Source of the DNA: an uncultured Clostridia bacterium
Lineage (GTDB): Bacteria > Bacillota > Clostridia > Oscillospirales > Oscillospiraceae
Reading direction: 5' to 3'
Assembly (NCBI GenBank): GCA_947164825.1
Contig: CAMUYE010000001.1
Location: 1-60,812 of the forward strand
DNA length: 60,812 nucleotides
Shown here: positions 797-52,234 of the stretch, piece after piece
Layout of the letters: every line of letters begins with the position of its first letter
Numbering within the stretch: the first letter of the stretch is position 1
Position numbers and translations under genes: made by a program
The notes under the pieces: generated by a model
What the model saw: only the letters and a program-made list of their open reading frames with translations
What the model was told of the DNA's origin: nothing
Database searches by the model: none

Positions 797-873
797 GTAG
801 GGGCCGGCGTCCTCGACGGCCCGCAGGTATCAGTTACATGTACGTTCGGGGCGTCGAGGACGCCGCCCCCTAC
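797..873. repeat. REPIN-like doublet copy 1: two inverted GTAG-headed palindromic units 25 nt apart
   Basis: GTAGGGGCCGGCGTCCTCGACGGCCC (797-822, +) and GTAGGGGGCGGCGTCCTCGACGCCCC (873-848, read on the minus strand). Nearly identical arms recur at 2078-2154 and 36954-37030. Confidence 0.85.
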
Positions 874-5638: not shown

Positions 5639-5748
5639 CTGGGATTTGTAGGGGCCGTAGGGAGGCATCCCTTGATGCCTCCGCCGATGACGATGCGCGG
5701 AGCGATGTGGGCATCGCTCCCTACGGCGCTGCGCGACAAATCCCAATT
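5639..5748. repeat. REPIN-like doublet with outer inverted arms
   Basis: TGGGATTTGT...GTAGGGAGGCATC-CCTT-GATGCCTCC (5657-5682), a 16-nt spacer, then GGAGCGATG-TGGG-CATCGCTCCCTAC (5699-5724)...ACAAATCCCA. Both outer and inner arms are inverted repeats. Confidence 0.85.
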
Positions 5749-12532: not shown

Positions 12533-13681
12533 ATGGCTTTTCCCAAGCTCTCTCCGCCTGACCAGGAAGAACGGGTCCCCTGGCTGGACGCCGCGCGTGC
12601 GTTGGCGATTCTCTCCGTGACCTGCAACCACGCCTTTATCCTGGCATATCCCGCCATGCGGAATATGAAGGACTATTACCAGGCCGCTTCCCTGCCGATC
12701 TCCGGTGCGGCGGCCCTGTTCTTTGTGTTCAGCCGTCTGGGCGTTCCCCTGTTTCTGATGATCTCCGGCGCTCTGCTGCTGGACCGGGACTACACGAAGC
12801 CCGGGGCGCTGAAGCGGTTCTACACCCACAACTGGCTCCGGCTGCTGCTGGTCACTGAGCTCTGGAATGTGCTGATCTATCTGGTTTTCCCGCTGATTTA
12901 CGGTTTCTTCGGACCCAGGCCCGGGCTGCGCGCTCTTCTGACAAATCTGGGAAAAGCGCTGCTCTTTCTCAACGCGGACGACGTGGGCAGCCGCTGGTAC
13001 ATGGCAATGATCCTCTGCGTCTATCCGCTGATCCCACCGCTGGCTGCCGCCCTGCGGCGGCTGCCGGGGAAGGCCTTCCTCCTGCCCGGTCTCGCCGTGG
13101 TGATCTTTGCCTTTCTGATTCCCAACGTCAACACCGCCCTGGAAGCCGCGGGCCTGAAGCTTCAGCTGAACGCTTCTGTGACGGCCGCCTACCTGCTGCC
13201 CGTCTATGTGCTCTATCTGGTTTTGGGCTATTATTTGGATCGCGGGCTGCTGGCAAACCGCTCCGTCTGGTTTTTAGTCCCCGGCTTCGCGCTGAGCTTC
13301 CTCGCCACGGGACTTTTCCAGCTCTGGATCTTCTCCGCGGGGACAGGGTACGGGGTGCGCTACGCGGACCTGGGGATCCTGGTCAGCTCCGTCTTCCTCT
13401 TTGCTCTGCTGCGGCGGATCAGGGCCGGACGTCTGCTCCGGGGGATCCCCGCCCGGGTCACGGCAAGCTGCGCCCTGGGGATCTTCTTCCTGCACATCCC
13501 TCTGATCCGGTACTGTGTGACGCTTCCCTTTCACAGGGTTCTCAGCACTTACGTCTTCCGCTATTTTCTGATCCTCTGGGCTGCTGGCTTCTTCGGCAGT
13601 CTGCTGGTAGTCTGGCTGACCGGGAAGCTCCCCCTTGTGGGAAAGTGGCTGTACCTCATGCGGCCGCGTAAAAAGGATTGA
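12533..13681 (+). CDS. acyltransferase-3 family membrane O-acyltransferase
   Basis: 382 aa, ~10 TM. N-terminal VPWLDAARALAILSVTCNH motif of acyltransferase 3. RBS GAGGTGA. Confidence 0.75.
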   Translation: MAFPKLSPPDQEERVPWLDAARALAILSVTCNHAFILAYPAMRNMKDYYQAASLPISGAAALFFVFSRLGVPLFLMISGALLLDRDYTKPGALKRFYTHNWLRLLLVTELWNVLIYLVFPLIYGFFGPRPGLRALLTNLGKALLFLNADDVGSRWYMAMILCVYPLIPPLAAALRRLPGKAFLLPGLAVVIFAFLIPNVNTALEAAGLKLQLNASVTAAYLLPVYVLYLVLGYYLDRGLLANRSVWFLVPGFALSFLATGLFQLWIFSAGTGYGVRYADLGILVSSVFLFALLRRIRAGRLLRGIPARVTASCALGIFFLHIPLIRYCVTLPFHRVLSTYVFRYFLILWAAGFFGSLLVVWLTGKLPLVGKWLYLMRPRKKD

Positions 13682-13709
13682 TCCCAGCGAATCTGCAACG
13701 GGATAAAAT

Positions 13710-13753
13710 GAGCGAGGCCCCGCGGGACCTCGCTCGTTTCGTTTTATTTTTTT
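13710..13753 (+). terminator. intrinsic terminator between convergent acyltransferase and metG
   Basis: GAGCGAGG-CCCCGCGGGA-CCTCGCTC followed by GTTTCGTTTTATTTTTTT. Confidence 0.7.
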
Positions 13754-13761
13754 GCGTAGGA

Positions 13762-15828
13762 TCAGCACAGGCGGCTGCCCGCAGGGATGGCGTCGTCCAG
13801 GATCAGCAGGTGCAGCTGCTCGCCGCGCTCGGCGGAGAGGAGCATCCCGCAGCTGAGCTGGCCCATCATCTTCCGGGGGGCCAGGTTGGTGACGGCCACC
13901 AGGGTCTTGCCGATCAGCTCCTCGGGCTTGTAGAACTTGGCGATGCCGGAGAGGATCTGCCGGGGGGTGCCGCTGCCGTCGTCCAGCTGGAACTTCAACA
14001 GCTTCTCGGACTTCTTCACGTTCTCGCAGGCCAGGACCTTGACGACGGTCATCTCGACCTTGGTGAAGTCGTCGAAGGCGATGGGCGGCAGAGGCTCGGG
14101 CAGGGGGGCGTCCTCGTCGGAGGGAGGGCCGATGTGGGCATCGGCCCCTACGGCGGCGTCCTCCTGTGGCGCACAGTGTGCGCCGCTGTCGGCGTCCCCT
14201 GTTGCCTGTTGCCTGTTGCCTGTTGCCTCAGCAGCCTGGGCGGCCTGGAGCTTCTCGAGCTCCTCCAGCTCCTTGGCGGCGTCGATGCGGGGGAAGAGGG
14301 CGGGGCCGTTCTCCACCTTGGCGTCCCGGTAGAGGGTGCCGAAGAAGCCCAGGGAGTCCCAGTCGTACTCCGTCGCGCCGATGCGCTTCATAATTTCGGC
14401 GGAGGTGTCAGGCATGAAGGGCTGCAGCAGGCCGCCGCAGATGCGGACGGTCTCCAGCAGGTTGTAGAGCACCCGGGCCAGGCGGGGCTTCAGGGCCTCG
14501 TCTTTGGCCAGCTTCCAGGGCTCGTTCTCGTCGATATACTTGTTGGCCCGGCCGATGACCTTAAAGATCTCGCCCAGGGCGTTCTGGAAGGCGTACTTCT
14601 CCATCTGCTCCTCATAGACGTGGACCAGGTCGCAGGCCATGGTGATGAGCTCGTCGTCCTTCTCCTCGTCCTCCTGCTGCTCCAGGGGAAGCTGCCCGCC
14701 GAAATACTTGCCCACCATGGCCACGGTGCGGCTGACCAGGTTGCCCAGGTCGTTGGCCAGGTCCACGTTGATGCAGGAAATCAGGCTCTCGTTGGTGAAA
14801 TTGCCGTCGGAGCCGAAGGGGAAGGTCCGGAGCATGAAGAAGCGCAGGGCGTCCACGCCGTAGCGCTCCGCCAGCAGGTAGGGATCCACCACGTTGCCCT
14901 TGGACTTGGACATTTTATCGCCGTTAAAGTTCAGCCAGCCGTGGCCGTAGATCTTCTTCGGCAGGGGCAGACCCATGCTCATGAGGAAGGCGGGCCAGTA
15001 GATGGCGTGGAAGCGGACGATCTCCTTGCCGATGAAGTGGACGTCGGCGGGCCAGAAGCGCTTCCAGTCCTCGCCGTTGTCGTTCAGGTAGCCCAGGGGG
15101 GACAGATAGCTGAACAGGGCGTCCAGCCATACGTAGACCACGTGCTTCCCGTCGAAATCCACGGGCACGCCCCAGGTGAAGCTGGTGCGGGAGACGCAGA
15201 GGTCCTGCAGGCCGCCTTCGCAGTCGATGAAGTTGTTGACCATCTCGTTGACCCGGCTCCTGGGCTCCAGGAAGTCGGTTTCGGTGAGGAGCTTGCGCAC
15301 CTGATCCGCATACTTGCTTGCGCGGAAGAAGTAGGCTTCCTCCCGGGCGGGCTGGACCTCGCGGCCGCAGTCGGGGCACTTGCCGTCCTTGAGCTGGCTC
15401 TCGGTCCAGAAGGACTCGCAGGGAGTGCAGTACAGGCCCTCGTAGCTGCTCTTGTAGATGTCGCCCTTCTCGTACATGGTCCGGAAGACGGTCTGGACGG
15501 TCTTCAGATGGCTTTCGTCGGTGGTGCGGACGAAGCGGTCATAGGAGACGTTCATCAGCTTCCACAGATCCTTGACGCCCTTGGGGGCCTCCACGATGGA
15601 GTCCACGAACTGCTTGGGGGTCACGCCGGCCTCTTTGGCCTTGTTTTCGATCTTCTGGCCGTGCTCGTCGGTGCCGGTGAGGAAGATCACGTCGGCGCCC
15701 CGCATTCGCTTATACCGGGCCATGACGTCCGTGGCCACGGTGCAGTAGGCATGGCCGATGTGGAGCCGGCTGGAGGGATAATAGATGGGGGTCGTGATAA
15801 AGAATTTCTCTTTGCACTGGTCGCACAT
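13762..15828 (-). CDS. metG: methionine--tRNA ligase with C-terminal tRNA-binding (EMAP/Trbp111-like) domain
   Basis: Trimmed to ATG 15826-15828 (AGGAGGAAATCACT upstream). ITTPIYYPSSRLHIGHAY (HIGH), KMSKSKGN (KMSKS), zinc knuckle CPDCG. The C-terminal FTKVEMTVVKVLACENVKKSEKLLKFQLD is an OB-fold. The linker carries a repeat element (see 14126-14229). Confidence 0.95.
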   Translation of the reverse strand: MCDQCKEKFFITTPIYYPSSRLHIGHAYCTVATDVMARYKRMRGADVIFLTGTDEHGQKIENKAKEAGVTPKQFVDSIVEAPKGVKDLWKLMNVSYDRFVRTTDESHLKTVQTVFRTMYEKGDIYKSSYEGLYCTPCESFWTESQLKDGKCPDCGREVQPAREEAYFFRASKYADQVRKLLTETDFLEPRSRVNEMVNNFIDCEGGLQDLCVSRTSFTWGVPVDFDGKHVVYVWLDALFSYLSPLGYLNDNGEDWKRFWPADVHFIGKEIVRFHAIYWPAFLMSMGLPLPKKIYGHGWLNFNGDKMSKSKGNVVDPYLLAERYGVDALRFFMLRTFPFGSDGNFTNESLISCINVDLANDLGNLVSRTVAMVGKYFGGQLPLEQQEDEEKDDELITMACDLVHVYEEQMEKYAFQNALGEIFKVIGRANKYIDENEPWKLAKDEALKPRLARVLYNLLETVRICGGLLQPFMPDTSAEIMKRIGATEYDWDSLGFFGTLYRDAKVENGPALFPRIDAAKELEELEKLQAAQAAEATGNRQQATGDADSGAHCAPQEDAAVGADAHIGPPSDEDAPLPEPLPPIAFDDFTKVEMTVVKVLACENVKKSEKLLKFQLDDGSGTPRQILSGIAKFYKPEELIGKTLVAVTNLAPRKMMGQLSCGMLLSAERGEQLHLLILDDAIPAGSRLC
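14126..14229 (-). repeat. composite element inside metG: (GGCAACA)x4 heptad array + GC hairpin + GTAG-headed REP
   Basis: Minus strand: GAG GCAACAG GCAACAG GCAACAG GCAACAG GGGAC...GGCGCAC-ACT-GTGCGCC...CCGTAGGGGCCGATG-CCCA-CATCGGCCC. Translated in frame as EATGNRQQATGDADSGAHCAPQEDAAVGADAHIGPP. Confidence 0.85.
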
Positions 15829-15908
15829 AGTGATTTCCTCCTTTGTGTTCAGGGATGGCATGTATTATATCCGTTTTACAGGCAAAATGCAAGCATTTTT
15901 TGCAGGAA

Positions 15909-15941
15909 GCGCGGGAGAACCTTACAGAGGTTCTCCCGCGC
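15909..15941 (-). terminator. strong GC hairpin after the upstream gene (no clear U-tract)
   Basis: GCGCGGGAGAACC-7 nt-GGTTCTCCCGCGC, 17 nt after the stop at 15958. On the minus strand it is followed by TTCCTGCAAAAAA, so a canonical intrinsic terminator is doubtful. Confidence 0.35.
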
Positions 15942-15957
15942 TTCCCGCTCCGTCCCG

Positions 15958-17220
15958 TCAACGGACGGTTTGTTCCGTATACGTCCCGTCCGACATCGTC
16001 AGCTCGGCGGGAAGCTCCGTGTGATAGAGGGTATTTCCCTCGCACCAGATGGCGGCGATCTCCGTCTCCGGAAGCGCGGCAACGGCGGCCGCATCCCAGG
16101 TCTCCGCTGTGAGCGCGGGCAGGGCGGAAAGGGCCAGCTCTCCGCAGGAGGCCGTCGGAGAGAGGAGGGTCAGGTCCCAAATCACAGCCCGGCTTTCGCC
16201 GGTGACGGGATTGAGATAGGGTGTCACCATCCTGCCGTTGCGATACGTATAGAAGTAGTCGATCAGCCTGTCGGACTGGTCGCCGGGCTGGAGGTCGGGG
16301 CCGCTGTAGCTGTGGAGGCAGGCCAGACTCATGGGGCCCCGGATCTGCAGGCTGGCGGGCAGCCTGATCCCGTCGGCTTCCAGCGCCTGGATCCGCAGGG
16401 TGTATTCGTCCTCGGCGGAGTCCAAATAGCGGCAGAAGCCCTCCCGGCTGGCCAGATAGCCCCGCCGGAAGCCCTGCTCCCCCAGTTTGGCTGCAATATC
16501 GTCCAGGACAAAGGCATTTTTCAGCCAATAAAAGTCCAGGAAGGCGTCGATCCCGTTTTCGGTAGCATAGCGCAGATAGTCCTCCCGGACCTTGAGCCGC
16601 ACCCGGTTCTCCCCCAGCAGATCCAGGGAGATAGCCTCAGGATCGGAGACGAAGCCCATGACCTCGGCCACATAGGCCGCAGCCTCCTCGCTGTAAGCCG
16701 GATCGTAGGCGGCCGCCTCGTCGTCGCTGAGGCTGCGGAACACGGCGTCGTACTGGGCGCAGACCGGAGCCAGGAAGAGGACGCGGCTGCCCTTGGCCTG
16801 CAGCAGCTCAAAGGCCCGGTAGAGTTCCGGCTCCACCGTACGTTCCTGATTCGGCGCGGCGTTGACGGACTGGAGGTTCCCCAGCCCGGTAAAGGCTTCC
16901 GTCGGATGGTAGACCTGCCAGGCCCGGAGGCTGGTTTCGGTGTAAAGCTTCGTCAGCAGCTTATACTCCATCGTGGCGTTGCTGCTCAGGCAGTACTCAA
17001 AATCCAGGTCCGCGCTGGCCTGAGCCGGGGAGCTGCTGTCTGCCTCGATCCGGGTCCAGCCGGACTCCCGGGTGAGAAGGCCCTTTACCCCGAAGTAGAC
17101 GCCTGCCAAGGCGATGCCAATGAACAGAACCATCAAAACGACCCGGAGCGCGATATTCTTCCCGGACAATTCGATGTTCTTCCGCGGCTTCAGCGCCCTG
17201 GCGTCCTTTTTCCCGAACAT
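15958..17220 (-). CDS. membrane-anchored extracytoplasmic protein, possibly a divergent ApbE (FMN transferase)-like fold
   Basis: N-terminal TM (IALRVVLMVLFIGIALAGVYFGV). The C-terminal segment YLNPVTGESRAVIWDLTLLSPTASCGELALSALPAL loosely resembles the ApbE pattern IDPxTGxP...ADALSTA. RBS GGAGGAAG. Confidence 0.4.
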   Translation of the reverse strand: MFGKKDARALKPRKNIELSGKNIALRVVLMVLFIGIALAGVYFGVKGLLTRESGWTRIEADSSSPAQASADLDFEYCLSSNATMEYKLLTKLYTETSLRAWQVYHPTEAFTGLGNLQSVNAAPNQERTVEPELYRAFELLQAKGSRVLFLAPVCAQYDAVFRSLSDDEAAAYDPAYSEEAAAYVAEVMGFVSDPEAISLDLLGENRVRLKVREDYLRYATENGIDAFLDFYWLKNAFVLDDIAAKLGEQGFRRGYLASREGFCRYLDSAEDEYTLRIQALEADGIRLPASLQIRGPMSLACLHSYSGPDLQPGDQSDRLIDYFYTYRNGRMVTPYLNPVTGESRAVIWDLTLLSPTASCGELALSALPALTAETWDAAAVAALPETEIAAIWCEGNTLYHTELPAELTMSDGTYTEQTVR

Positions 17221-17282
17221 GGATCTTCCTCCTATCCTGCATTAGGGTTTGTGCGTTACGATCGCAGGCTTGCGGATCTGCG

Positions 17283-17320
17283 AAAAGCCGCTCTGCCGGC
17301 GCGCCGGCAGAGCGGCTTTT
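17283..17320. terminator. bidirectional intrinsic terminator ending Opp-like operon 1
   Basis: AAAAGCCGCTCTGCCGGC-GC-GCCGGCAGAGCGGCTTTT, a perfect 14-bp GC-rich stem flanked by an A-run and a T-run. Confidence 0.85.
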
Positions 17321-17350
17321 GGATTTGCTTTGCCGCGTCGGATGACGTGG

Positions 17351-18676
17351 TTAGATAGCTGCGATCACCAGCAGGATCGCCAGGATCAAAATCAAGACAC
17401 CAATGACGATCAAGCCTGCGATGGCGCCCTTCTTGAGCATCTTGTAGGTCCGAAGGTAGTTTGCCTTCTTGAGGATGACGCCCACAAGCAGGGCCAGGAT
17501 CGGCAGCAGGAAGCCCAGGATGGCAAACAGCTTGCTGCCGGAGTCGTGGATCGGCGTGTCGAGGATGTAGTTGCTGCCGGACAGGTCGGCTTCCTTGTTC
17601 CGCTGCTCTTCCTCGTAGGCCGCCATCTCCTCGTCGTTGAGGATGGTGATGGACTTCATGCGGATGCCCGCTTCGCGGGTCCGCTTGTATTCCTCGATCT
17701 CCTTCTTGCTGCCCCGGACGAAGTGGTTGTGGCCGATGTCCACAAGCTCCGGCTGCTCCTCGCCGTAATTGTGCATGGAGGGGTCGTAGGTGAAGAGGAC
17801 CTTGTGCTTCTCCAGCTTGGGGTCGGGGATGGGGATGGCGGAGATCAGAGAATGGGTGTAGGGGTGCAGGGGGTAGTCGAAGAGCTCTTCGGTGTCCGCA
17901 ATCTCCACGATGTCGCCCTTATAGATGACCGCGATGCGGTCGGAGACAAAGCGGACGATGGACAGGTCGTGGGCGATGAAGAGGTAGGTCAGACCGCGTT
18001 CGCGCTGGAACTTCTTCATCAGGTTCAGGACCTGGGCACGGATGGACACGTCCAGGGCGGAGATGGGCTCGTCGGCAATGACAAGCTCCGGCTCCATGAC
18101 CATGGCGCGGGCCAGACCGATACGCTGGCGCTGGCCGCCGGAGAACTCATGGGGGTAACGGGTCAGATGCTCGGGCAGCAGACCGACCTCTTCGATGATG
18201 TTCTCCACCTTCTGGACCCGGTCCGCCTCGTTCTCATAAAGGTGGAAGTTGTACAGGCCCTCGGAGATGATGTAGTCGACGGTGGCGCGCTCGTTCAGAG
18301 AGGCTGCCGGGTCCTGGAAGACCATCTGGATGTTGCGGATGACCTCCCGGTCCAGAGAACGGGGGATCTTGCCGGAGATGCGGACGCCCTTGTAGAGAAT
18401 CTCACCGGCGGCGCAGGGGTTGACGCGGATCACGGCACGGCCGATGGTGGTCTTGCCGGAGCCGGACTCGCCGACCAGGGAGAAGGTCTCGCCCTTGTGG
18501 ATATCAAAGCTGGCGTTCTTGACCGCGCGGACAGCATTTTCGCCCTTGCCGAAGGTGATGTCCACGTTCCGGACCTGGAGAAGGATCTCTCTTCCGTCCT
18601 TGTCGATGGGACCGTGCTCCGGCAGGTGAGACTGGGTCTGCGACGGCTGAGTCTTTTTCACTTCATTCTTTGCCAC
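17351..18676 (-). CDS. Opp/Dpp-type ABC ATPase (OppF-like) with ~110-aa C-terminal extension ending in two TM helices
   Basis: GTG start after AAGGAGGG. Walker A GESGSGKT, signature FSGGQRQR, Walker B LVIADEP. The tail ...[63 protein letters not shown] is strongly hydrophobic. Confidence 0.85.
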
Positions 18677-31959: not shown

Positions 31960-34338
31960 TTAGTTGAGCTCGATCTTCTCGATCTCGTCGGCCCAGCCGT
32001 AGAACGGGGTCATGTCAGCGGGCAGGGTGTTGACGTTCACGCGCTCGGTGGAGAACACGGTGGCGTCCTTTCTCTGGTACAGAGGCAGCTCAACGCCCCA
32101 GGAGAGGATGATCTCAAGGGCTTCCTTGTAAGCGGACTTACGATAGGTGTTGTCAGCAGAGGAACGAGCGTCCATGATGATCTCATCAAGTTCGGCGTCC
32201 TTGATCTGATAGTGGTTGGAGTTGGTGCCCTTGCCGTCAGCATTGGAGCTGTGGTAGACCTGGTACATGTCGGGGTCAGCGGAGGACTGCCAGGCAGCGG
32301 CCCACATATCAGCAGTGTTGGCATTCAGCTGGGCATTCCAGACAGAGGTGCCGACGTCGTTGATGCGGATGACGTAGCCGATGTTGCCCAGGAGCTCCTT
32401 CGCCTTGACGGCGATGCCGTAGGCGGGGTGATCCTGCTGGCCCTGGCCGGGGATCATGATCTCGTAGGAGTCCTCTTCGCTCATGCCCTTGGCGCCCTGA
32501 GGAGCTTTGGTGACCTTGCCGTTCTCGACGGTGAAGCCAGCGGCCTCGAGGTAAGCCAGAGCAGCCTGCGTAGCGGCCTCGTACTTATCCTCTTCGCTCA
32601 TGTCGTCGGTGTAGATGGGGTTGCCGTCCACGCCGATGGAGTAAGCGTTGTGGTAGCCCTCGTCGGTGGGACGGGGAGCAGCCCAGGAGGTGTTGGAGAT
32701 GGGGTACTGGATGACAGCGGCGCGGTCGCCGTAGTAGGAGGCGATAACGGTGTCACGGCAGACGGACAGGACGGTCATGATGGCCAGACGGAGGTACTTG
32801 GACTCCTGGCTGGAGCCGTCTTCGCCGACAGCGACGCGGTTGCCGTTGATGCCCAGGTAGCCGTAGCCACGGTAGTCAACCAGCTTGGTGGTGAGGACGT
32901 CGCCCTCGAGCTCGCCGTTGGAGTTGCCCTTCTTGATGGACTCCACGACAGTGTCGTTCAGAGAGGGAGAAGCGATGTCGAAGTTGCCGGCCTGGATGCC
33001 GGGGATGTAGTCGGAGTCAACGGATTCCTGATACTTGACGTACTTGACCTTGGGCTCGCCCTTGAAGTAGTTGGGGTTGGCCTCGAGGGAAGCAACGCTG
33101 TTGGCATAGCCCTGATAGATGTAGGGACCGCAGCCCATGGGGTTGGTGGTCTTTTCCTTCACGATGCGAAGGTCGCCCTTGGGGAAGCCGAAGGAGTTGT
33201 TGTCGTAGTCATACAGGGAGGCGTCGCCGTAGTAGTGCATGGGGGCAACAGGGAAGCCCATGCTGTAGATGGCGGTGGCGTCGAACTTGGTGCAGTGGAT
33301 GCGCATGCTGTAATCACCGGTCTTGATGACGCCGGAGATGTTGGCAGCGCCGGCACCGGTGGAGACGCCGGCCTGGTAGTCGGGACCCAGAGCGTTCTTG
33401 GTCAGGCCAACACGGTCGGAGCCGGCAGACTCAGTGGCCTCAGCTTCTTCGACGGTGTCGTAGGCAGCCACGATGGCTTCCCAGAAGGCCTGGTAGTCGG
33501 CGTCCTCGGCCAGCTCAAAGCCCCAGTTGGCAGCGCAGGCGGCGACGGAGTCGTCGGGAGCGTTGTAGCCGTTGCTGATGCAGTAGTCGCAGATTTCCTT
33601 GGCGAAATCAGCGCCGGCGTTCTCGTTGTAGTAGGTCCAGAACTCGTCGTACTGTTCCTTGGTGTAAAGCTCGGTCTCGGTGTAGCCGTCGGGGCCGGCA
33701 GCGAAGATGACGTCGCCGCGGGCTTCCATGCCGGAGCGGTACTCTTCCATACCCTCGATGGGCAGGGAGTAGATGGTGGAGGAGCCGTCGTAGGTGGGAT
33801 CGGCCATGACGTAGATGCCGAAGATCACGTCGTCAATGGTGGCGGGGGTGCCGTCGGAGAACTTGACATCGTCGCGCATGGTCAGGTCGTAGTCGACAGT
33901 GCCATCGTCATTCTGGGTGATCACGCAGTTGCCCAGAGTGTAGTAGGTGTAGTCCACGCCGTTGTAGGCACGGGTCTCACCCTCAATGGCATTGAGGAGC
34001 ATGTTGCCCTCGCGGTCGCTGCTCAGCAGGTAGCCGGTGACGAGGTTGGCAATGTCTCCGTCGTAAACGGTGGTGTAGAAGAAGGGGCTGAACTTCTGCT
34101 CCATGGAGCTGGTAGCAATGACCATGGTGTCGTTCTTGGGAGCAGGGGGCTCGGTGGTGTCGACGGGAGTCGTGTCGGCAGTGGTGTCGACAGGCTTGTC
34201 GGTGGCGGGAGTGGTGTCGGTCTTGGTGTCTGCGGGCTTCTCGGTGGTGGTAGTGGGCTCAGAGACACAGCCGGCAAACAGACCGGCAACCATGACCAGA
34301 GCCAGCACCAGAGCCAGAAGCTTGGTGATGTTGCGCAT
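31960..34338 (-). CDS. family-5 (OppA/DppA-like) substrate-binding lipoprotein, 792 aa
   Basis: Lipobox LFAGC, a Thr/Pro-rich linker and a long SBP_bac_5-like core. Paralog of 23284..25566. Confidence 0.85.
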   Translation of the reverse strand: MRNITKLLALVLALVMVAGLFAGCVSEPTTTTEKPADTKTDTTPATDKPVDTTADTTPVDTTEPPAPKNDTMVIATSSMEQKFSPFFYTTVYDGDIANLVTGYLLSSDREGNMLLNAIEGETRAYNGVDYTYYTLGNCVITQNDDGTVDYDLTMRDDVKFSDGTPATIDDVIFGIYVMADPTYDGSSTIYSLPIEGMEEYRSGMEARGDVIFAAGPDGYTETELYTKEQYDEFWTYYNENAGADFAKEICDYCISNGYNAPDDSVAACAANWGFELAEDADYQAFWEAIVAAYDTVEEAEATESAGSDRVGLTKNALGPDYQAGVSTGAGAANISGVIKTGDYSMRIHCTKFDATAIYSMGFPVAPMHYYGDASLYDYDNNSFGFPKGDLRIVKEKTTNPMGCGPYIYQGYANSVASLEANPNYFKGEPKVKYVKYQESVDSDYIPGIQAGNFDIASPSLNDTVVESIKKGNSNGELEGDVLTTKLVDYRGYGYLGINGNRVAVGEDGSSQESKYLRLAIMTVLSVCRDTVIASYYGDRAAVIQYPISNTSWAAPRPTDEGYHNAYSIGVDGNPIYTDDMSEEDKYEAATQAALAYLEAAGFTVENGKVTKAPQGAKGMSEEDSYEIMIPGQGQQDHPAYGIAVKAKELLGNIGYVIRINDVGTSVWNAQLNANTADMWAAAWQSSADPDMYQVYHSSNADGKGTNSNHYQIKDAELDEIIMDARSSADNTYRKSAYKEALEIILSWGVELPLYQRKDATVFSTERVNVNTLPADMTPFYGWADEIEKIELN

Positions 34339-35852: not shown

Positions 35853-36597
35853 GGTCTTCCTCCTCCAATTCCTGAATGAATTTCTTTTCGGCCTTGGTTT
35901 TGTCGGGCAGGCGGAGCCGGGCGAAGAGGTCCGGGCGGCGGCGCATGGTGCGGAGAATGGACTGCTTCCGCCGCCAGCGGGCCACCTTGGCGTGGTCACC
36001 GGAGGTCAGGATCTCCGGCACGGGGCGGTCGTGCCAGACGGCGGGGCGGCTGTACTGGGGGTATTCCAGCAGGCCGTTCCAGTGGCTCTCCTCCTCAAAG
36101 CATTCCGGGTCCGAGAGCACGCCCGGCAGCAGGCGGCAGACCGCGTCGGTGATCGCCATGGCCGCGATCTCTCCGCCCGTCAGGACGAAATCGCCCAGGG
36201 AGAGCTCCTCGTCCACGCACTCGTCGATGAAGCGCTGGTCGATGCCCTCGTAGTGGCCGCAGACCAGGATCAGGTTCTCGTAGGCGGCAGCCAGGCGGCG
36301 GGCGCAGCCCTGGTCGAAGACCTGGCCGCAGGGGGACATATAAATCGTATGCGGACGGAGGCCGATTTCTTCGCAGATATGGGCCCAGCAGCGGTAGAGC
36401 GGGTCCGCCTGCATGACGGCTCCCCGGCCCCCGCCGTAGGGATAGTCGTCCACCTGGTTCTGCTTGTTGGTGGTGTAGTCCCGGATCTGGTGGGTGCGGA
36501 TCGTGATAAAGCCCCGCTCCTGGGCCCGGCCCAGGATCGATTCGGACAGCACGTCTCCCACAGTATCCGGGAAGAGGGTCATAATGTCAATTCTCAT
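35812..36597 (-). CDS. trmD: tRNA (guanine37-N1)-methyltransferase
   Basis: MRIDIMTLFPDTVGDVLSESILGRAQERGFITIRTHQIRDYTTNKQNQVDDYPYGGGRGAVM...VLTGGEIAAMAITDAV (trefoil-knot SAM site). Confidence 0.95.
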   Translation of the reverse strand: MRIDIMTLFPDTVGDVLSESILGRAQERGFITIRTHQIRDYTTNKQNQVDDYPYGGGRGAVMQADPLYRCWAHICEEIGLRPHTIYMSPCGQVFDQGCARRLAAAYENLILVCGHYEGIDQRFIDECVDEELSLGDFVLTGGEIAAMAITDAVCRLLPGVLSDPECFEEESHWNGLLEYPQYSRPAVWHDRPVPEILTSGDHAKVARWRRKQSILRTMRRRPDLFARLRLPDKTKAEKKFIQELEEEDHEFQIRYAENLGR

Positions 36598-37153
36598 CCG
36601 TCTCCATCCCTTCGATCAGGTTCACGTTGACGTAACCAAGGGTGAGGTCGATGGCGGGGACGAAGGTCTTCACGTTGGGGATCATATACGCCTTCTCCCC
36701 TTTTACGACCCAGACGTCGGAGGACGGCATGGAGAGGATCTCGGTGATCCTGCCGATCTCCGCGCCGTCGGCCCGGACCGGCATGCCGATCAGGTCCGCC
36801 TGGAAGACCGTGCCCGCAGGGATGCGGGAATCGTCCCGGGCGATGGAGAGCACCTTGTCCCGGAGCTTCTGGGCGTCCTCCACGGTGTCGACGCCCTTGA
36901 ATTTGATCAACACGCAGCTCTTCTGGACGCGGCTCGATTCCACCGCCAGCGCCGTAGGGGTCGGCGTCCCCGACGGCCCGCGGGTATCAGAAATCGACAG
37001 GTTCGGGGCGTCGAGGACGCCGCCCCCTACGAGATAAAAGGTCTTGAACCGGGTCAGAAATTCCGGGCTGTCGGCCCAGGGCAGGACCTTGACCTCACCC
37101 CGGATCCCGTGGGTGGAGACGATCTTCCCGGCTTCAAGGTATGTTTCATTCAT
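36587..37153 (-). CDS. rimM: 16S rRNA processing protein RimM carrying an in-frame REPIN-like insertion
   Basis: Trimmed to ATG 37151-37153. The N-terminal barrel (LEAGKIVSTHGIRGEVKVLPWADSPE) and the PRC barrel (FQADLIGMPVRADGAEIGRITEILSMPSSDVWVVKGE) are in the same frame on both sides of aa 41-68 (LVGGGVLDAPNLSISDTRGPSGTPTPTA), which is encoded by the repeat. Confidence 0.88.
   Translation of the reverse strand: MNETYLEAGKIVSTHGIRGEVKVLPWADSPEFLTRFKTFYLVGGGVLDAPNLSISDTRGPSGTPTPTALAVESSRVQKSCVLIKFKGVDTVEDAQKLRDKVLSIARDDSRIPAGTVFQADLIGMPVRADGAEIGRITEILSMPSSDVWVVKGEKAYMIPNVKTFVPAIDLTLGYVNVNLIEGMETDEN
36954..37030. repeat. REPIN-like doublet copy 3, located inside the rimM reading frame
   Basis: GTAGGGGTCGGCGTCCCCGACGGCCC (36954-36979), 25 nt, GGGGCGTCGAGGACGCCGCCCCCTAC (37005-37030). 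Same architecture and spacing as copies at 797-873 and 2078-2154. Confidence 0.85.
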
Positions 37154-37182: not shown

Positions 37183-37398
37183 GCGGGCAGATTGCCCGCG
37201 CTGCAGTTCTCATACTGAACTCCCATAGAAACCTTTAATCTGTTTCGGCAGAAATTGTGTCATACTTCGTTGTCGTCCTTGCCGGGCGTCAAGCCCGCCT
37301 GCGTCCTCCGCCTCGTCTGACGCAATTCCTGCACGGAACATTTTTCAATCTTTCTATGGGAGTTCAGTATCAATTCTCAATTTTCAATTCTAAATTCC
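37183..37398. repeat. palindromic core + 7-bp array, interrupted by a MITE-like insertion
   Basis: GCGGGCAGATTGCCCGCGCTGCAGTTCTC [159-bp insert] CAATTCTCAATTTTCAATTCTAAATTCC. The same core GCGGGCAGATTGCCCGCGCTAC followed by a heptad array occurs at 46941-47001. Confidence 0.75.
37212..37370. mobile_element. MITE-like element, 159 bp, 20-bp perfect terminal inverted repeats, no coding capacity
   Basis: ATACTGAACTCCCATAGAAA (37212-37231) is the exact reverse complement of TTTCTATGGGAGTTCAGTAT (37351-37370). The flanks CAGTTCTC (37204-37211) and CAATTCTC (37371-37378) match at 7 of 8 positions as direct repeats. Confidence 0.6.
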
Positions 37399-37953: not shown

Positions 37954-37995
37954 TTTCATTTTCAACTTTCAATTTTCATTTCAACTTTCAACTTT
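37954..37995. repeat. AT-rich 7-bp tandem array (ATTTTCA/ACTTTCA) between ffh and rpsP
   Basis: ATTTCATTTTCAACTTTCAATTTTCATTTCAACTTTCAACTTTT, abutting the ffh stop codon (37996-37998). Confidence 0.8.
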
Positions 37996-39389: not shown

Positions 39390-39550
39390 CGGAATTGAAA
39401 ATTGAAAGTTGAAAATTGAAAATGGAGGTGTTTTTCAGATTGCCATCTGAAAAGCAGAAATGAAACCGGCTTGAAAGCTGATCTCTATCTTTTCAGCGTT
39501 CAAATGGCAATTTGAACGATCCCTCAACTTTCAACTATCAATTATCAATT
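39390..39550. repeat. composite element: left array (GAAAATT/GAAAGTT) + two AT-rich hairpins + right array (inverted)
   Basis: GGAATTGAAAATTGAAAGTTGAAAATTGAAAAT ... GGAG..TTTTCAGAT-TGCC-ATCTGAAAA ... GTTCAAAT-GGCA-ATTTGAAC ... CCTCAACTTTCAACTATCAATTATCAATTT. The right array encodes the last residues and the stop of ylxM. Confidence 0.8.
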
Positions 39551-42602: not shown

Positions 42603-42711
42603 TAAGTAAGAAGTAAGAAGTAAGAAGCAGGAAGTAAGCGGACAAGCGATGCTTGTCCCTACATTATAATTCTCAAGATAATTCTCATTTCTCACTTCTC
42701 AATTCTCAATT
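42603..42711. repeat. composite element: (GAAGTAA)n array + GTAG-headed REP + (AATTCTC)n array
   Basis: TAAGTAAGAAGTAAGAAGTAAGAAGCAGGAAGTAAG C GGACAAGC-GAT-GCTTGTCC CTAC ATTATAATTCTCAAGATAATTCTCATTTCTCACTTCTCAATTCTCAATTG. Confidence 0.85.
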
Positions 42712-46305: not shown

Positions 46306-46375
46306 GTGAAGTGAGAAGTGAGAATTGAGAAGTGAGAAGTAAGATGTAAGATGTAGGGACAAGCATTGCTTGTCC
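46306..46375 (+). repeat. heptad array (GTGAGAA/TTGAGAA/GTAAGAT) + GTAG-headed REP
   Basis: GTGAAGTGAGAAGTGAGAATTGAGAAGTGAGAAGTAAGATGTAAGAT GTAG GGACAAGC-ATT-GCTTGTCC. The same REP stem occurs at 42640-42662. Confidence 0.85.
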
Positions 46376-46940: not shown

Positions 46941-47001
46941 GCGGGCAGATTGCCCGCGCTACATTGTCTCCTGTCACTTGTCACCTGTCACCTGTCACTT
47001 G
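46941..47001 (-). repeat. GTAG-headed REP + (GTGACAG/GTGACAA) heptad array; array overlaps the 3' end of the flavoprotein gene
   Basis: Plus strand: GCGGGCAGATTGCCCGCGCTAC ATTGTCTCCTGTCACTTGTCACCTGTCACCTGTCACTTG. On the minus strand the array encodes ...SDR-TGA of CDS 46988..48361. Confidence 0.85.
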
Positions 47002-48375: not shown

Positions 48376-48477
48376 GAATTGAGAATTGAGAGTTGAGAAT
48401 TGAGAATTTTCGGAGTTTCGCAAATTGCAATTTGCGAAACACATCCATTTTCAATTCTCAATTCTCAGTTCTCAATT
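48376..48477. repeat. composite element: (GAATTGA)n array + GGAG + perfect 26-nt palindrome + inverted (ATTCTCA)n array
   Basis: GAATTGAGAATTGAGAGTTGAGAATTGAGAATTTT CGGAG TTTCGCAAATTGCAATTTGCGAAA CACATCC ATTTTCAATTCTCAATTCTCAGTTCTCAATTG. The right array encodes QLRTEN-TGA of rluB. Confidence 0.88.
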
Positions 48478-49192: not shown

Positions 49193-49294
49193 GAAGTTGA
49201 AAGTTGAGAATTAAAAATTGAAAGTGATCGGAGTTTTGCAGATTGCAATCTGCAAAACACATTCATTTTCAACTTTCAACTATCAATTTTCAAC
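49193..49294. repeat. composite element homologous to 48376-48477
   Basis: GAAGTTGAAAGTTGAGAATTAAAAATTGAAAGTG ATCGGAG TTTTGCAGATTGCAATCTGCAAAA CACATTC ATTTTCAACTTTCAACTATCAATTTTCAAC. The right array supplies the dacB stop (TGA, 49290-49292). Confidence 0.88.
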
Positions 49295-50294
49295 TGGCGG
49301 GTGGCCAGGAAACGGGCACCTCGGCGACGCATTTGCCGTTCAGGTACACTTTGACCGTACCGGCGTGGGGAAAATCCGGGACGTAGACCAGGCGGGGCTC
49401 CTCTCCGGGAGCGAGGGAGAGCGTCAGATCCGCCTGCGCGATCAGGGTCAGGTCACCGACCCGCATGATCGGCTGGCCTTTGACCGCCGTCTGCTCCTGC
49501 CGGAATTGGGCGAAGCCCCAGTCCAGCAGGGCCATGTGGTCCTGCCAGTCGGCGGGATCGTTGACCGTGACGCAGATCAGGGTCCGGCCCTCCCGCTCCG
49601 CCGCGCTGACCAGGAGCCGCCCCGCCGCCCGGGTATACCCGGTCTTCACCCCGATGCAGCCGGGGCAGCGCCAGAGGAGCTTATTGTGGTTGGTCAGCAT
49701 CCGATCCCCGGACACGACAGCCGTCTTCGCGGCGGCGATGCGCCGGAACTCCGGATTCTGCAGAGCCGCCGCCGTCAGCAGGGCCAGATCCCGGGCGGAG
49801 CCGTAGTTGCCCTCCTGATCCAGGCCGTGCGGGTTGGCGTAATGGGTGTTTTGCAGGCCGAGCCTGCGGGCTGCTTCGTTCATGCGATCCACGAAGGCCG
49901 TCTCGCTGCCCGCCGTGTCAATGGCCAGGGCCAGGGCGGCGTCGTTGCCGGAATGGAGCATGGTGCCGAGAAGCAGCTCCTCCCGGGTCAGGGTCTCCCC
50001 TTCCTGCAGGTACAGAGACGAGCCCTCCACCCCCACGGCCTCCGGGGGGACGGTCACGGGACGGTCCAGATCCCCGGCCTCACAGGCCAGCCAGGCTGTC
50101 ATGATCTTTGTGGTGGAGGCGATCAGCCCGGGATCGTCCGGGTGCCGGGACCAGAGCAGCGCTCCGGTGTCGGCGTCCATCAGCACGCCGCGTCCTGCGG
50201 AGACGGAAGGCGCGGCCTCAGCGGCGGCCGCGGGCAGGCAGAGACTGCCGACAGCGAAAAGGAGTGCCGTCAGCAGAAAGAAAAGTCGTTTCAT
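49290..50294 (-). CDS. dacB: D-alanyl-D-alanine carboxypeptidase (peptidase S11, PBP5-type)
   Basis: Signal peptide and SxxK active site (ASTTKIMT), SGN (HSGND), KTG (VKTGYT). The dacB assignment rests on its position next to scpA/scpB and rluB, as I recall for Bacillus. Confidence 0.8.
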   Translation of the reverse strand: MKRLFFLLTALLFAVGSLCLPAAAAEAAPSVSAGRGVLMDADTGALLWSRHPDDPGLIASTTKIMTAWLACEAGDLDRPVTVPPEAVGVEGSSLYLQEGETLTREELLLGTMLHSGNDAALALAIDTAGSETAFVDRMNEAARRLGLQNTHYANPHGLDQEGNYGSARDLALLTAAALQNPEFRRIAAAKTAVVSGDRMLTNHNKLLWRCPGCIGVKTGYTRAAGRLLVSAAEREGRTLICVTVNDPADWQDHMALLDWGFAQFRQEQTAVKGQPIMRVGDLTLIAQADLTLSLAPGEEPRLVYVPDFPHAGTVKVYLNGKCVAEVPVSWPPAS

Positions 50295-50379
50295 CCTTCA
50301 TCACCCGTTCCAGTTTCCCCGAAACGGGTCGAACTATGCGTTATTTTTCAAATTCGAAATTTGTCAAACGCATTCGCAG

Positions 50380-50405
50380 GGGCCGATGTGGGCATCGGCC
50401 CCTAC
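50380..50405 (-). repeat. GTAG-headed REP, identical to the unit inside metG
   Basis: GGGCCGATG-TGGG-CATCGGCCCCTAC, flanked by AT-rich palindromes (CAAATT-CGA-AATTTG at 50349-50363). Confidence 0.85.
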
Positions 50406-50429
50406 GGCTCCGCAATCCGAATTCGCAGT

Positions 50430-50864: not shown

Positions 50865-51581
50865 TTACGCAACCGCGTTCTTGCCGGTTTCTTTCTCTTT
50901 GTCTTCTTTTTCTTTGTCTTTTCCGCCGGCGAGTTTTTGACGGATGAAAAGCGCCAGGGCTTTGCCCGCAAATTTCAGGAGCAGGAGCACGACGCCGCCG
51001 ATCCGGAGCCGGACCCGCAGTTCCGCCTCCAGGTCGGTCTTGGAGGCTGTGAAGTCGGGATACACCGCGATCTTCTTTTCCTTGATCCGGAACGCTTGCT
51101 CCAGGATCGGCATGGCGATGCCGATGGCCTCCCAGGCCTTGCCGATGGTCTCGGCGGTTTTGGCCGGGTCGCCTCCCGCCAGGGCGGCGCGGACCCGGAG
51201 CCGGGTGACCGTAAGCTTCCGGTGGAAGAACTGGCCGACAAATTTCGCGCCCAGCTTCGCCCAGGGGATGATCTCTCTGACCTTCTCCGGCAGGGGCTTC
51301 TTGGGCTTTTCCGGCTCTTCGGGCTTGGCGATCAGGCTTTGCGCCTGTTTCTTTTTCTTCTTTTTCTCCTTGGCCGCGGCCTTCTTGGCGTCCTTCTTTG
51401 CTTTCTTCGCTTCGGCCTTTTCCCGCTTCTTCCGGGACATCGGCTTCTTCGGCAGGATGCCGATCCGGATGAAGAGGATCGTCAGCTTCAATTCGATCTC
51501 GTCATGGTATCGGAAAATGACGCCCACGGGGATGCATCCGATCAGGAAGATGACGGCGGCAATGATCAGGAATACCCTCAT
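50865..51581 (-). CDS. DUF2953 (YtfI-like) sporulation-associated membrane protein with Lys-rich linker
   Basis: An N-terminal TM, ILFIRIGILPKK, a long KKxKK linker and a C-terminal TM. Its position upstream of ytfJ matches my recollection of Bacillus. Confidence 0.7.
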   Translation of the reverse strand: MRVFLIIAAVIFLIGCIPVGVIFRYHDEIELKLTILFIRIGILPKKPMSRKKREKAEAKKAKKDAKKAAAKEKKKKKKQAQSLIAKPEEPEKPKKPLPEKVREIIPWAKLGAKFVGQFFHRKLTVTRLRVRAALAGGDPAKTAETIGKAWEAIGIAMPILEQAFRIKEKKIAVYPDFTASKTDLEAELRVRLRIGGVVLLLLKFAGKALALFIRQKLAGGKDKEKEDKEKETGKNAVA

Positions 51582-52234
51582 TCAGCCTTCGCCTCCTCTG
51601 CCGGTTGATCGGAGGCTTCTGCCTCGGGCGGGCGGCCAATGGCCGCCCCTACGGCGCGGTCCCCTGTTGCCTGTTGCCCGCTGCCTGTTGCCTCGCCGCC
51701 GTCCTCGGCGGCGGTGCTGAACTGCACCTTCTCCATCTCCGGCAGCTCGTCCAGGGACTCCAGACCGAAGGTGCGGAGGAAGTCGGGGGTGGTGCGGTAG
51801 AGGATGGGGCGGCCCGGGGCTTCCAGGCGGCCGTCTTCCTCGATGAGCTTCTTGTTCAGCAGAGCCGAAACGGAATACGCGCTGTCCACCCCCCGGAGCT
51901 TCTCCACGAAGGCCTTGGTGGTGGGCTGGTAGTAGGCGATAATGGTGAGGGTCTCCAGCTGGGAGGCCGAGAGCTTCGGGGGCTTGCGGGTCTCCAGGGC
52001 ACGGGTGACCCAGGGGGCCAGGTCGTTCTGGGAGCACATCTGCCAGCTGTCCTCCAGCCGGAGGATGCGGATGCCCCGGCGCTCGAAGGCGTAGAGGTCC
52101 ATGAGCTCCTTCATGACGGCCCGGATCTCGTCGGGGTCGGTCTCGGTGACGAAGCTGAGCCGCTCCGTCTCCACCGGCTCCCCGGCGGCGAACAATACTG
52201 CCTCGCAGATGCGGGCAAGCTCCTTATGATCCAT
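51578..52234 (-). CDS. scpB: segregation and condensation protein B with repeat-encoded C-terminal tail
   Basis: ICEAVLFAAGEPVETERLS...LSASQLETLTIIAYYQPTTKAFVEKLRGVDSAYSVSALLNKKLIEE (two winged helices). The tail GGEATGSGQQATGDRAVGAAIGRPPE is encoded by 51630-51694. Confidence 0.9.
   Translation of the reverse strand: MDHKELARICEAVLFAAGEPVETERLSFVTETDPDEIRAVMKELMDLYAFERRGIRILRLEDSWQMCSQNDLAPWVTRALETRKPPKLSASQLETLTIIAYYQPTTKAFVEKLRGVDSAYSVSALLNKKLIEEDGRLEAPGRPILYRTTPDFLRTFGLESLDELPEMEKVQFSTAAEDGGEATGSGQQATGDRAVGAAIGRPPEAEASDQPAEEAKAE
51630..51694 (-). repeat. composite element inside scpB: (GGCAACA)-type heptad array + GTAG-headed REP
   Basis: Minus strand: GAG GCAACAG GCAGCGG GCAACAG GCAACAG GGGAC CGCG CCGTAG GGGCGGCC-ATT-GGCCGCCC. 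Same module order and same reading frame as the metG copy. Confidence 0.85.

Follow-up and report, generated by a model that had tools for sequence, protein, structure and literature searches.

In-frame repeat modules of intergenic type in the interdomain linker of an Oscillospiraceae methionyl-tRNA synthetase

Introduction

Repetitive extragenic palindromic (REP) sequences tagged by GTAG have been described inside genes (Di Nocera, De Gregorio and Rocco 2013, BMC Genomics 14:522, PMC3733652), and mobilisation by REP-associated tyrosine transposases (RAYTs) was hypothesised in the same survey. A tandem heptanucleotide element of Geobacter metallireducens, built of GGGACCG units, occupies 49 intergenic and intragenic sites, and a second class holds five heptanucleotides (PMC2700814). 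In-frame palindromic repeats are not new as a kind, because the Rickettsia palindromic elements (RPEs) and intragenic REPs of the GTAG and CGTC types are known. The present analysis concerns metG, the gene for methionyl-tRNA synthetase (MetRS), in a 60,812-nt stretch of DNA from an uncultured Clostridia bacterium of the family Oscillospiraceae (contig CAMUYE010000001.1, positions 1 to 60,812), referred to as the window. A preliminary description of this stretch had reported tandem heptads, a hairpin and a REP identical to an intergenic copy, all translated within the linker between the anticodon-binding and C-terminal tRNA-binding domains. The presence of repeat modules, including the intergenic-identical REP, in frame within the MetRS interdomain linker is supported here, and the segment is judged likely to consist of translated passenger repeat modules held at a permissive site.

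Results

Repeat modules within the metG linker

The open reading frame (ORF) at 13762–15861 on the minus strand runs uninterrupted across the repeat segment. The exact 688-aa product started at M12 (15828) is entry P0361 in a public protein collection, and the earlier account is corrected in that the database gene model begins at M12 (13762–15828). Pfam assigned tRNA-synt_1g (class I MetRS catalytic domains), Anticodon_3 (residues 387–518) and tRNA_bind (593–685) to the product, whose homologs are annotated as methionine--tRNA ligase (Oscillospiraceae bacterium); by these boundaries the repeat segment is located between Anticodon_3 and the tRNA_bind oligonucleotide/oligosaccharide-binding (OB) domain.

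Read on the minus strand, positions 14229–14126 begin with GAG-(GCAACAG)x4-GGGAC, continue with GCC-GACAGC-GGCGCACA-C-TGTGCGCC-ACAGGAGGAC and end with GCCGCC-GTAGGGGCCGATG-CCCA-CATCGGCCC. Translation of the ORF across this segment predicts the product EATGNRQQATGDADSGAHCAPQEDAAVGADAHIGPP. Heptads, hairpin and REP are all present where the preliminary description had placed them, but two of the three had to be redefined. The heptads were detected by Tandem Repeats Finder as CCTGTTG (GGCAACA on the coding strand) in 4.4 copies with a 100% match at 14198–14228; they are not a free microsatellite and form part of a discrete 36-nt cassette at 14194–14229. The hairpin, a perfect 8+1+8 palindrome (GGCGCACA-C-TGTGCGCC, 14168–14184) in an inverted-repeat search, exists as described but is not a plain element. 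It is a second GTAG-type REP with its head decayed to ACAG, because the palindromes of orthologs bear GTAG heads and the related locus L144 retains AGTAGC. The central loop base of this second REP is C in the window, which gives H, whereas L145, L144 and most others have G, which gives Q.

The same search returned a 9+4+9 palindrome, GGGCCGATG-TGGG-CATCGGCCC, at 14126–14147, followed by CTAC. The metG REP has the form of the GTAG superfamily, GTAG plus GGGCCGATG-CCCA-CATCGGCCC in a GC-rich palindrome of 26 nt, and its head is read GTA-GGG. Both the peptide and this phase, which avoids a TAG stop, had been described correctly; a stop codon falls in only one of the REP's six frames and in none of the six of the heptad cassette. 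The 26-mer has exactly two occurrences in the window (14126 and 50380) and was matched in 0 of 100 shuffles. Its reported identity with 50380–50405 was confirmed and, by direct reading, extends over 29 nt (14126–14154 = 50380–50408). The metG REP units are singletons in one common orientation.

Direct repeats accompany both copies. A 9-nt repeat, GAGGACGCC, at 14155–14163 and 14107–14115 brackets the 48-nt block that holds the metG REP, and an 8-nt repeat, ATTCGCAG, at 50372–50379 and 50421–50428 brackets the intergenic REP. Their offsets from the two REPs differ, and therefore no constant element termini can be defined.

The structure of MetRS was modelled with AlphaFold2 from a 55-sequence alignment (mean predicted local distance difference test score, pLDDT, 83). 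Values of pLDDT below 50 were obtained at residues 538–573, between the helix 517–542 and the OB domain, and otherwise only in a short loop at 307–312. The low-scoring stretch falls within the inserted block (residues ~533–574), and the domains flanking the insert were predicted with confidence. The insert site is, in this model, a predicted disordered linker, and the fold of MetRS would not be disturbed.

On the plus strand, a 1226-aa ORF at 13678–17358 lies antisense to metG and its neighbours. In this genome of 62% GC it was rated a shadow ORF, and not a gene, because GC peaks at codon position 1 and not at position 3.

Presence and absence of modules among MetG orthologs

The MetRS sequence was compared with 120 homologs and 13 further cluster members. 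All homologs at 71–78% identity were 648–656 aa long with short, module-free linkers (e.g. ...ALTEKPKAPEEDPLPEPLP), and at 82–92% identity the linker was 10–50 residues longer and contained recurring peptide blocks. The ancestral MetRS linker had no insert. The suggestion that MetG orthologs would serve to date the insertion proved sound, the linker being module-free at 71–78% identity and a shifting mosaic in closer relatives; the peptide, whose occurrence in distant orthologs had been named as possible counter-evidence, is absent from them.

The window MetRS sits in a 90%-identity cluster whose members (657, 677, 682, 688 and 715 aa) are told apart by entire modules. In L145 (P0373), with a catalytic body 99.6% identical, the linker is the same as in the window except for H to Q. 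Proteins of the P0362 type (catalytic body 96%) are without EATGNRQQATGD, those of the P0003 type (96–97%) have heptads, a different module and the hairpin, those of the P0367 type (93%) have the hairpin alone, and those of the P0366 type (94%) have five modules (715 aa). In DNA alignments, L144 (96%) lacks exactly 36 nt (14194–14229), with no flanking microhomology at this cassette indel, and L146 (93%) lacks exactly 48 nt (14110–14157), with GAGGACGCC in single copy at the empty site; metG of L003 carries zero modules. The head of the second REP is intact in L144 (AGTAGC-GGCGCACAGTGTGCGCC), and GTAGC-GGCGCACAGTGTGCGCC was found at the second-REP site in L004, L005 (two copies) and L144.

Nine further orthologs had between 0 and 4 palindromes per linker, from several families and in either orientation, each with a GTAG head (CTAC if inverted) save a few decayed copies. 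The types encountered were GTAGGGGCCGATGCCCACATCGGCCC, GTAGC-GGCGCACA-G-TGTGCGCC, GTAGGGACGAGCA-N-TGCTCGTCC and inverted GGACAAGCAATGCTTGTCC-CTAC. Across five REP-bearing orthologs only 1 difference in total was counted in the 26-nt REP, in a gene ~91% identical overall and 83% identical at third codon positions. The modules of MetG are thus discrete units, present or absent between very close relatives. The gene is conserved, the frame is open, and empty or partly empty sites exist in L003, L144 and L146, as expected of in-frame insertion.

An assembly artefact, in which repeats would have induced a chimera in metG, was the least likely of all the explanations considered. The DNA probably comes from a metagenome assembly, and an identical REP lies 36 kb off. 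Nevertheless, the frame and both flanking domains are intact, and other assemblies, made from different samples with different pipelines, show each module at that position. The concern, which had been raised at the outset, is dismissed because an independent NCBI assembly (L145, GCA_024712465.1) holds the same 120-nt composite with one substitution, at the hairpin-loop centre. The metG of L145 (contig JAMQYI012598104.1) diverges abruptly after ...FDDFT, from ~4770 to the contig end; its 608-aa product is without the OB domain, which may reflect a chimera at the contig end, insertion of a mobile element or a genuine truncation.

Most orthologs keep the stems though the linker is hypervariable, and a 136-nt RNA from the segment was predicted to fold at -62 kcal/mol (z = -2.5 versus shuffles) with both palindromes in the minimum-free-energy structure. 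These features would suit mRNA hairpins retained for a function, such as ribosome pausing between domains in aid of co-translational folding, mRNA stability or processing, or separate expression of the C-terminal tRNA-binding domain. Such a function is nonetheless improbable: the z-score is modest and expected of any palindromic DNA, recent insertion explains intact stems equally well, REP families and orientations differ between orthologs, and one, two or all modules are missing in L003, L146, L144 and P0027-30 with no compensating structure. Rfam returned zero families over the whole window at the gathering threshold, and therefore no known structured RNA accounts for the hairpins. No evidence was seen for a function of the peptide or of the mRNA hairpins, and close relatives manage without any subset of them.

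In-frame modules in scpB and rimM

In-frame repeat modules are general in the Oscillospiraceae genome of the window, occurring in scpB and rimM as well as in metG (Table 1). The tails of ScpB orthologs are mosaics of EATGNRQQATGD, VGADAHIGP, VGSDAHIAP, VGAAIGRPPEAEAS and others, and the ortholog P0255 has seven heptad units, the three extra units keeping the frame. A 7-nt CGAGGCA in scpB was considered as a target duplication and rejected, as it belongs to the cassette start and the next module.

The doublet in rimM is read as VGGGVLDAPNLSISDTRGPSGTPTPT, adding 27 residues in a loop of the N-terminal domain, and the Pfam RimM N-terminal domain is accordingly stretched to 101 residues over 83 profile positions. 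Its units belong to the same family as those of the intergenic inverted REP doublets of the window (797–873 and 2078–2154). Orthologs of RimM range from 164 to 229 aa, and the differences lie in the doublet loop, which is built of identical and other repeat-derived peptides.

Table 1. Positions of metG, scpB, rimM and their repeat modules, and of intergenic repeats, in the window.
Feature	Position	Strand	Description
metG, methionine--tRNA ligase	13762–15828	minus	688 aa from M12; ORF open from 15861
36-nt heptad cassette of metG, GAGGCAACAGGCAACAGGCAACAGGCAACAGGGGAC	14194–14229	minus	G + (AGGCAAC)x4 + AGGGGAC; read as EATGNRQQATGD
Second REP of metG, palindrome GGCGCACA-C-TGTGCGCC	14168–14189	minus	head decayed to ACAGC (GTAGC in orthologs); read in frame as (D)SGAHCAP
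48-nt REP-holding block of metG	14110–14157	minus	missing from L146 (filled/empty-site alignment)
GTAG-type REP of metG, GTAGGGGCCGATGCCCACATCGGCCC	14126–14151	minus	read as VGADAHIGP; exact duplicate of 50380–50405
Intergenic copy of metG REP	50380–50405	minus	stem lengthened to 11 bp
scpB	51578–52234	minus	Pfam SMC_ScpB on residues 9–166 only
Second composite, C-terminal tail of scpB	51630–51694	minus	read as EATGSGQQATGDRAVGAAIGRP
scpB cassette, GAGGCAACAGGCAGCGGGCAACAGGCAACAGGGGAC	51659–51694	minus	two substitutions relative to metG cassette; same ends GAGGCAA...GGGGAC, same frame
scpB GTAG REP, GTAGGGGCGGCCATTGGCCGCCC	51630–51652	minus	few bases 3′ of scpB cassette; differs from metG REP
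rimM	36587–37153	minus	whole inverted REP doublet (REPIN-like) in frame at 36954–37030
Intergenic arrays of 4–5 heptanucleotides	37370–37397, 37954–37995, 39393–39548, 42604–42711, 46308–46375, 46941–46998, 48376–48477, 49194–49295		

A covarying REP family across Oscillospirales

One genome per species was scanned with the degenerate pattern GTAGGGNNCGATGCCCACATCGNNCC, in which two stem positions were free and the rest of the stem was fixed. At least 119 loci of the family were found, nearly all in metagenome-assembled genomes (MAGs) of Oscillospiraceae, Acutalibacteraceae, Ruminococcaceae and related Clostridia. Copy statistics were calculated from the listed scan matches pooled with the window copies and ortholog loci. 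Among the matches listed, the free stem positions were Watson-Crick paired in 164 of 173 copies, in 15 pair combinations; 48 of 164 copies were in opposed pairs ≤200 nt apart, with heads outward in 20 pairs and inward in 4; and, with the window included, 145 of 147 evaluable copies fell outside an open coding frame, by a test (open frame plus GC content at third codon positions) that is crude for low-GC genomes. The window holds 20 GTAG-headed hairpins against ~2.5 expected, the majority between genes. An intergenic composite at 5648–5724 contains three GTAG units, including GTAGGGAGCGATGCCCACATCGCTCC, an AG/CT compensatory-stem variant of the metG REP.

Covarying, mostly non-coding and often doubled copies are the signature of a family of REPs and REPINs (REP doublets forming hairpins), with selection acting on the hairpin. 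The predicted translation follows the stem: VG-A-DAHI-G-P corresponds to GC/GC, VG-S-DAHI-A-P to AG/CT and VG-D-DAHI-V-P to GA/TC, and an inverted unit encodes GPMWASAPT instead. These comparisons show the predicted REP stem, and not the peptide, to be what is conserved.

Many relatives do have identical peptides in their MetRS, ScpB and RimM, as they would if VGADAHIGP, SGAQCAPQE and ATGNRQQATGD were selected linker motifs and the DNA palindromy incidental. That explanation is scarcely credible, since the opposite orientation yields the unrelated GPMWASAPT and GGRPMAAPT, which are also found, and paired amino-acid changes track the stem complement. Moreover, most copies are intergenic, the region is predicted to be disordered, and distant orthologs are without the peptides.

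The heptad cassette

The cassette has the architecture G-(AG+N5)x4-AGGRGAC, with sharply defined ends, and usually stands 3–10 nt 5′ of a GTAG head; in metG it lies five bases upstream of the head of the resident REP, and the same placement is seen elsewhere. In all DNA examined, 30 cassettes matched (7-mer)n + AGGRGAC, 23 of them with exactly four units ahead of the terminus, and a control terminus gave 0. Perfect copies of the metG cassette occur in other contigs. The core pentamer varies (GCAAC, GCAAT, GTGAC, TCACC, GCATC) and the terminus is constant. When metagenomes were scanned for (GGCAACA)3GGGGAC, 15 contigs were found in unrelated contexts, some of them mosaics with GTAGC REPs and other cassettes. 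In L141 (Ga0302325_10112389, from an unrelated metagenome), a tgt-like (queuine tRNA-ribosyltransferase) ORF has an in-frame cassette insert at ~2000–2100, composed of (GGCAACA)n-GGGGAC, a short hairpin and CTGTTCC-type heptads that match the first array imperfectly in reverse complement. By its sequence, this insert suggests that cassettes of this type also occur beyond Oscillospiraceae, and the Geobacter elements together with the unrelated metagenome contigs are a hint of broader occurrence.

Period-7 arrays of 4–5 copies occur 14 times in the window, and in 1.07 Mb of related DNA arrays of period 7 (n = 73) far outnumber those of period 6 (n = 7) and period 8 (n = 3). A hairpin of ≥8 bp lies within 30 nt of 44% of period-7 arrays, compared with 10% of random positions. 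Three intergenic elements (39393–39548, 48376–48477 and 49194–49295) are low in GC and have the form heptads, hairpin, inverted heptads. Stop codons interrupt three or four frames of such low-GC arrays, which were never seen in genes; set against the stop-free GGCAACA cassette, this explains which arrays can survive inside genes. The intergenic arrays of Table 1 cluster between genes of a co-directional group at 37–51 kb, many of them forming units of heptads, hairpin and inverted heptads or standing beside GTAG REPs. HutP- or TRAP-like NAG-N4 RNA-binding sites were considered as an identity for the heptads and rejected: many arrays fit, but several are a misfit (AATTGCG, TATCAAA, AAATTCA). 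A tandem repeat of 42 nt (also 30 nt) in ~2.2 copies at 34154–34256, close to the 5′ end of a gene encoding 792 aa (ORF 31960–34338, minus strand), is not related to REPs.

Heptad slippage had been raised as a possible cause of linker length variation in MetG, and this was not borne out: every GGCAACA-bearing MetG examined has four units. Loss of one unit in metG leads to a stop 24 codons on, and a change of one or two units shifts the frame. Slippage is not behind the length variation, because the unit count is fixed at four and such changes shift the frame. A perfect 4.4-copy, 7-nt tandem repeat within an essential gene could, in principle, be a slippage-prone contingency tract that makes long and short MetRS phase-variable, given that the stop after loss of one unit falls ahead of tRNA_bind, that the MetRS of E. 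coli stays active when truncated at its C terminus, and that the seven units of P0255 attest a change of copy number in ScpB. This was considered very unlikely, however. Four units are short for high-frequency slippage, the count of four recurs in the cassettes of unrelated contexts (23 of 30, as above) just as in the MetG orthologs, and the variation consists of the 36-nt cassette being there in full or not at all. Among the 120 homologs and 13 cluster members examined, none had a frameshifted metG allele, the partial L145 being cut or divergent elsewhere.

It is conceivable, though rather doubtful, that the 36-nt cassette is a distinct miniature mobile module that acts with REPs, the two nesting beside one another and generating fast-evolving disordered segments in essential proteins across gut Oscillospirales.

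Proposed origin and mobilisation of the modules

The modules of metG are the same as those that make up the intergenic repeats of the window genome, which resemble bacterial interspersed mosaic elements (BIMEs), and the metG mosaic would amount to ~40 disordered residues. Modules may arrive through the process that spreads REPs in these genomes. The most likely agent would be a HUH tyrosine transposase of RAYT-like type, working on hairpins in single-stranded DNA, a step that, taken alone, is plausible but held with slightly more doubt than confidence; alternatively, it could be microhomology-mediated copying or recombination between repeats. New modules would land preferentially beside resident ones, and the position of the cassette next to a GTAG head suggests nesting beside existing units, which would help to explain hotspots. 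Selection would then purge insertions that shift the frame, add a stop or strike a folded region, and survivors would be left in tethers, tails and loops, as in the MetRS linker, the ScpB tail and the RimM loop. As a neutral passenger, the inserted peptide most likely does no more than make the tether longer.

Candidates for the transposase were found in the clade. Three ORFs near REPs (in L034, L076 and L028) have HUH and YxDHIIR motifs, and their best NCBIfam match was 'REP-associated tyrosine transposase' (REP_Tyr_transpos, E 5e-13 to 5e-20); REPs occur within and beside these candidate RAYT genes. The RAYT-like gene of L034 (1572–2081, minus strand) lies right downstream of metG in a Faecousia MAG and has in-frame REPs of the same family on both sides of the HUH motif (VGDDAHIVP ... 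GTMWASSPT), as does that of L076 (1932–2399).

Several points weigh against the origin proposed above. The candidate RAYTs score 49–72 bits against an NCBIfam cut-off of 80, and Pfam Y1_Tnp scores 21.1 against a threshold of 23. No RAYT-like gene was found in the 60.8-kb window by tblastn with the L034 protein, and the RAYT-like genes of the clade are candidate agents of the metG insertions. The empty site has just one copy of the 9-nt direct repeat that borders the metG REP block. Transposition of the IS200/RAYT type is not expected to produce target duplications, and the repeat would fit another, duplication-making insertion mechanism or a deletion between microhomologies equally well. In addition, each indel may be a gain or a loss, and the neutrality of the peptide is an assumption.

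The 9-nt repeat at the REP block therefore gives substantial weight to spread by homology- or microhomology-driven copying (gene conversion, ectopic recombination or template switching at hairpins) in place of transposition, a possibility that is real even if unlikely. By this route the metG, scpB and rimM sites would swap cassettes with intergenic mosaics. In agreement with such exchange, the 48-nt block is flanked by GAGGACGCC and the intergenic REP by ATTCGCAG at other offsets, without constant element ends; the order and frame of cassette plus REP are alike in metG and scpB; the window contains no transposase; and two strains 99.6% identical have complementary bases at the centre of the hairpin, the change that a flip of the hairpin would produce. 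Copying of this kind fits less well with a cassette indel that has no flanking microhomology, with units that have sharp ends in hundreds of unrelated contexts and many genera, or with the association of RAYT-like genes with the REP family in the clade. The two routes are not mutually exclusive.

Discussion

These data indicate that selfish or structural DNA repeats read in frame can be a source of disordered linkers and tails in the housekeeping proteins of bacteria and that, in this Oscillospiraceae clade, disordered segments are built from them and rebuilt between near-identical strains. They also extend intragenic REPs beyond the Proteobacteria, Rickettsia and the Planctomycetes-Verrucomicrobia-Chlamydiae (PVC) group to Clostridia of the gut and rumen, which are abundant and mostly uncultured. 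Peptides such as VGADAHIGP, SGAQCAPQE and ATGNRQQATGD will recur in unrelated proteins and can cause spurious homology, odd 'hypothetical protein' calls and misleading alignments when MAGs are annotated. The hypervariable MetRS linker could act as a strain marker. With filled and empty sites in hand, the mechanism by which the cassette originated is directly testable. A full-text literature search for GADAHIGP, ATGNRQQAT, GSDAHIAP and LRSAQND returned zero papers, and a search for REPIN/RAYT with Clostridia or Oscillospiraceae returned nothing relevant.

The nearest precedent found for the heptad cassette is the element of Geobacter metallireducens (Aklujkar et al. 2009, PMC2700814), which likewise has four tandem heptanucleotides and is multicopy and GC-rich. 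The Geobacter element differs in unit sequence and phylum and was read as regulatory RNA or regulator-binding sites; a link to REPs, evidence of translation and presence/absence polymorphism were not reported for it (PMC2700814).

With the REPIN/RAYT systems and BIMEs of Proteobacteria (PMC2817692, PMC3116915) the present family shares GTAG hairpins, outward-headed doublets and mosaic clusters, and with REPIN/RAYT systems (Nunvar 2010, PMC2817692; Bertels and Rainey 2011, PMC3116915) also a single-copy relative of HUH Y1 transposases, here as a candidate only. Classical REPIN/RAYT systems are extragenic by definition and proteobacterial, whereas this family belongs to Oscillospirales, spans many genera and has a near-invariant core; its candidate RAYTs fall below the cut-off, and two of them carry in-frame REPs of their own.

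The RPEs of Rickettsia (Ogata et al. 2000, 2002), as summarised in PMC3733652, resemble the metG modules in being in-frame palindromes that are translated in genes for essential proteins, and they are tolerated because they land in surface loops or fold-neutral segments. According to that summary, however, RPE-1 is 100–150 nt long and RPE-4 and RPE-6 are of the CGTC type, whereas the units described here are 23–36 nt and of the GTAG type. The host of the RPEs is an intracellular alphaproteobacterium with a decaying genome, unlike Oscillospiraceae, and RPE insertions are mostly old and common to several species, whereas the Oscillospiraceae units vary near strain level.

The intragenic REPs surveyed by Di Nocera and colleagues (PMC3733652) are GC-rich GTAG palindromes of 20–40 nt, mainly intergenic and commonly arranged as opposed dimers, and occasional genic units or dimers encode ~10–30 residues of apparently functional proteins; in all of these respects the present REPs are alike. 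The terms 'Firmicutes' and 'Clostridia' are absent from the text of that survey, which stressed DNA replication and repair genes, and the hosts here are MetRS, ScpB and RimM of Oscillospiraceae. In contrast to those REPs, up to five modules from several families occupy one site here, with turnover among 93–99% identical relatives, and the REPs are coupled to heptad cassettes. What is new is therefore the lineage (gut and rumen Oscillospirales, outside the survey of Di Nocera and colleagues) and the host sites in the MetRS tether, the ScpB tail and the RimM loop, together with the stacking of multiple families, the near-strain-level turnover at one site and the coupling to the heptad cassette.

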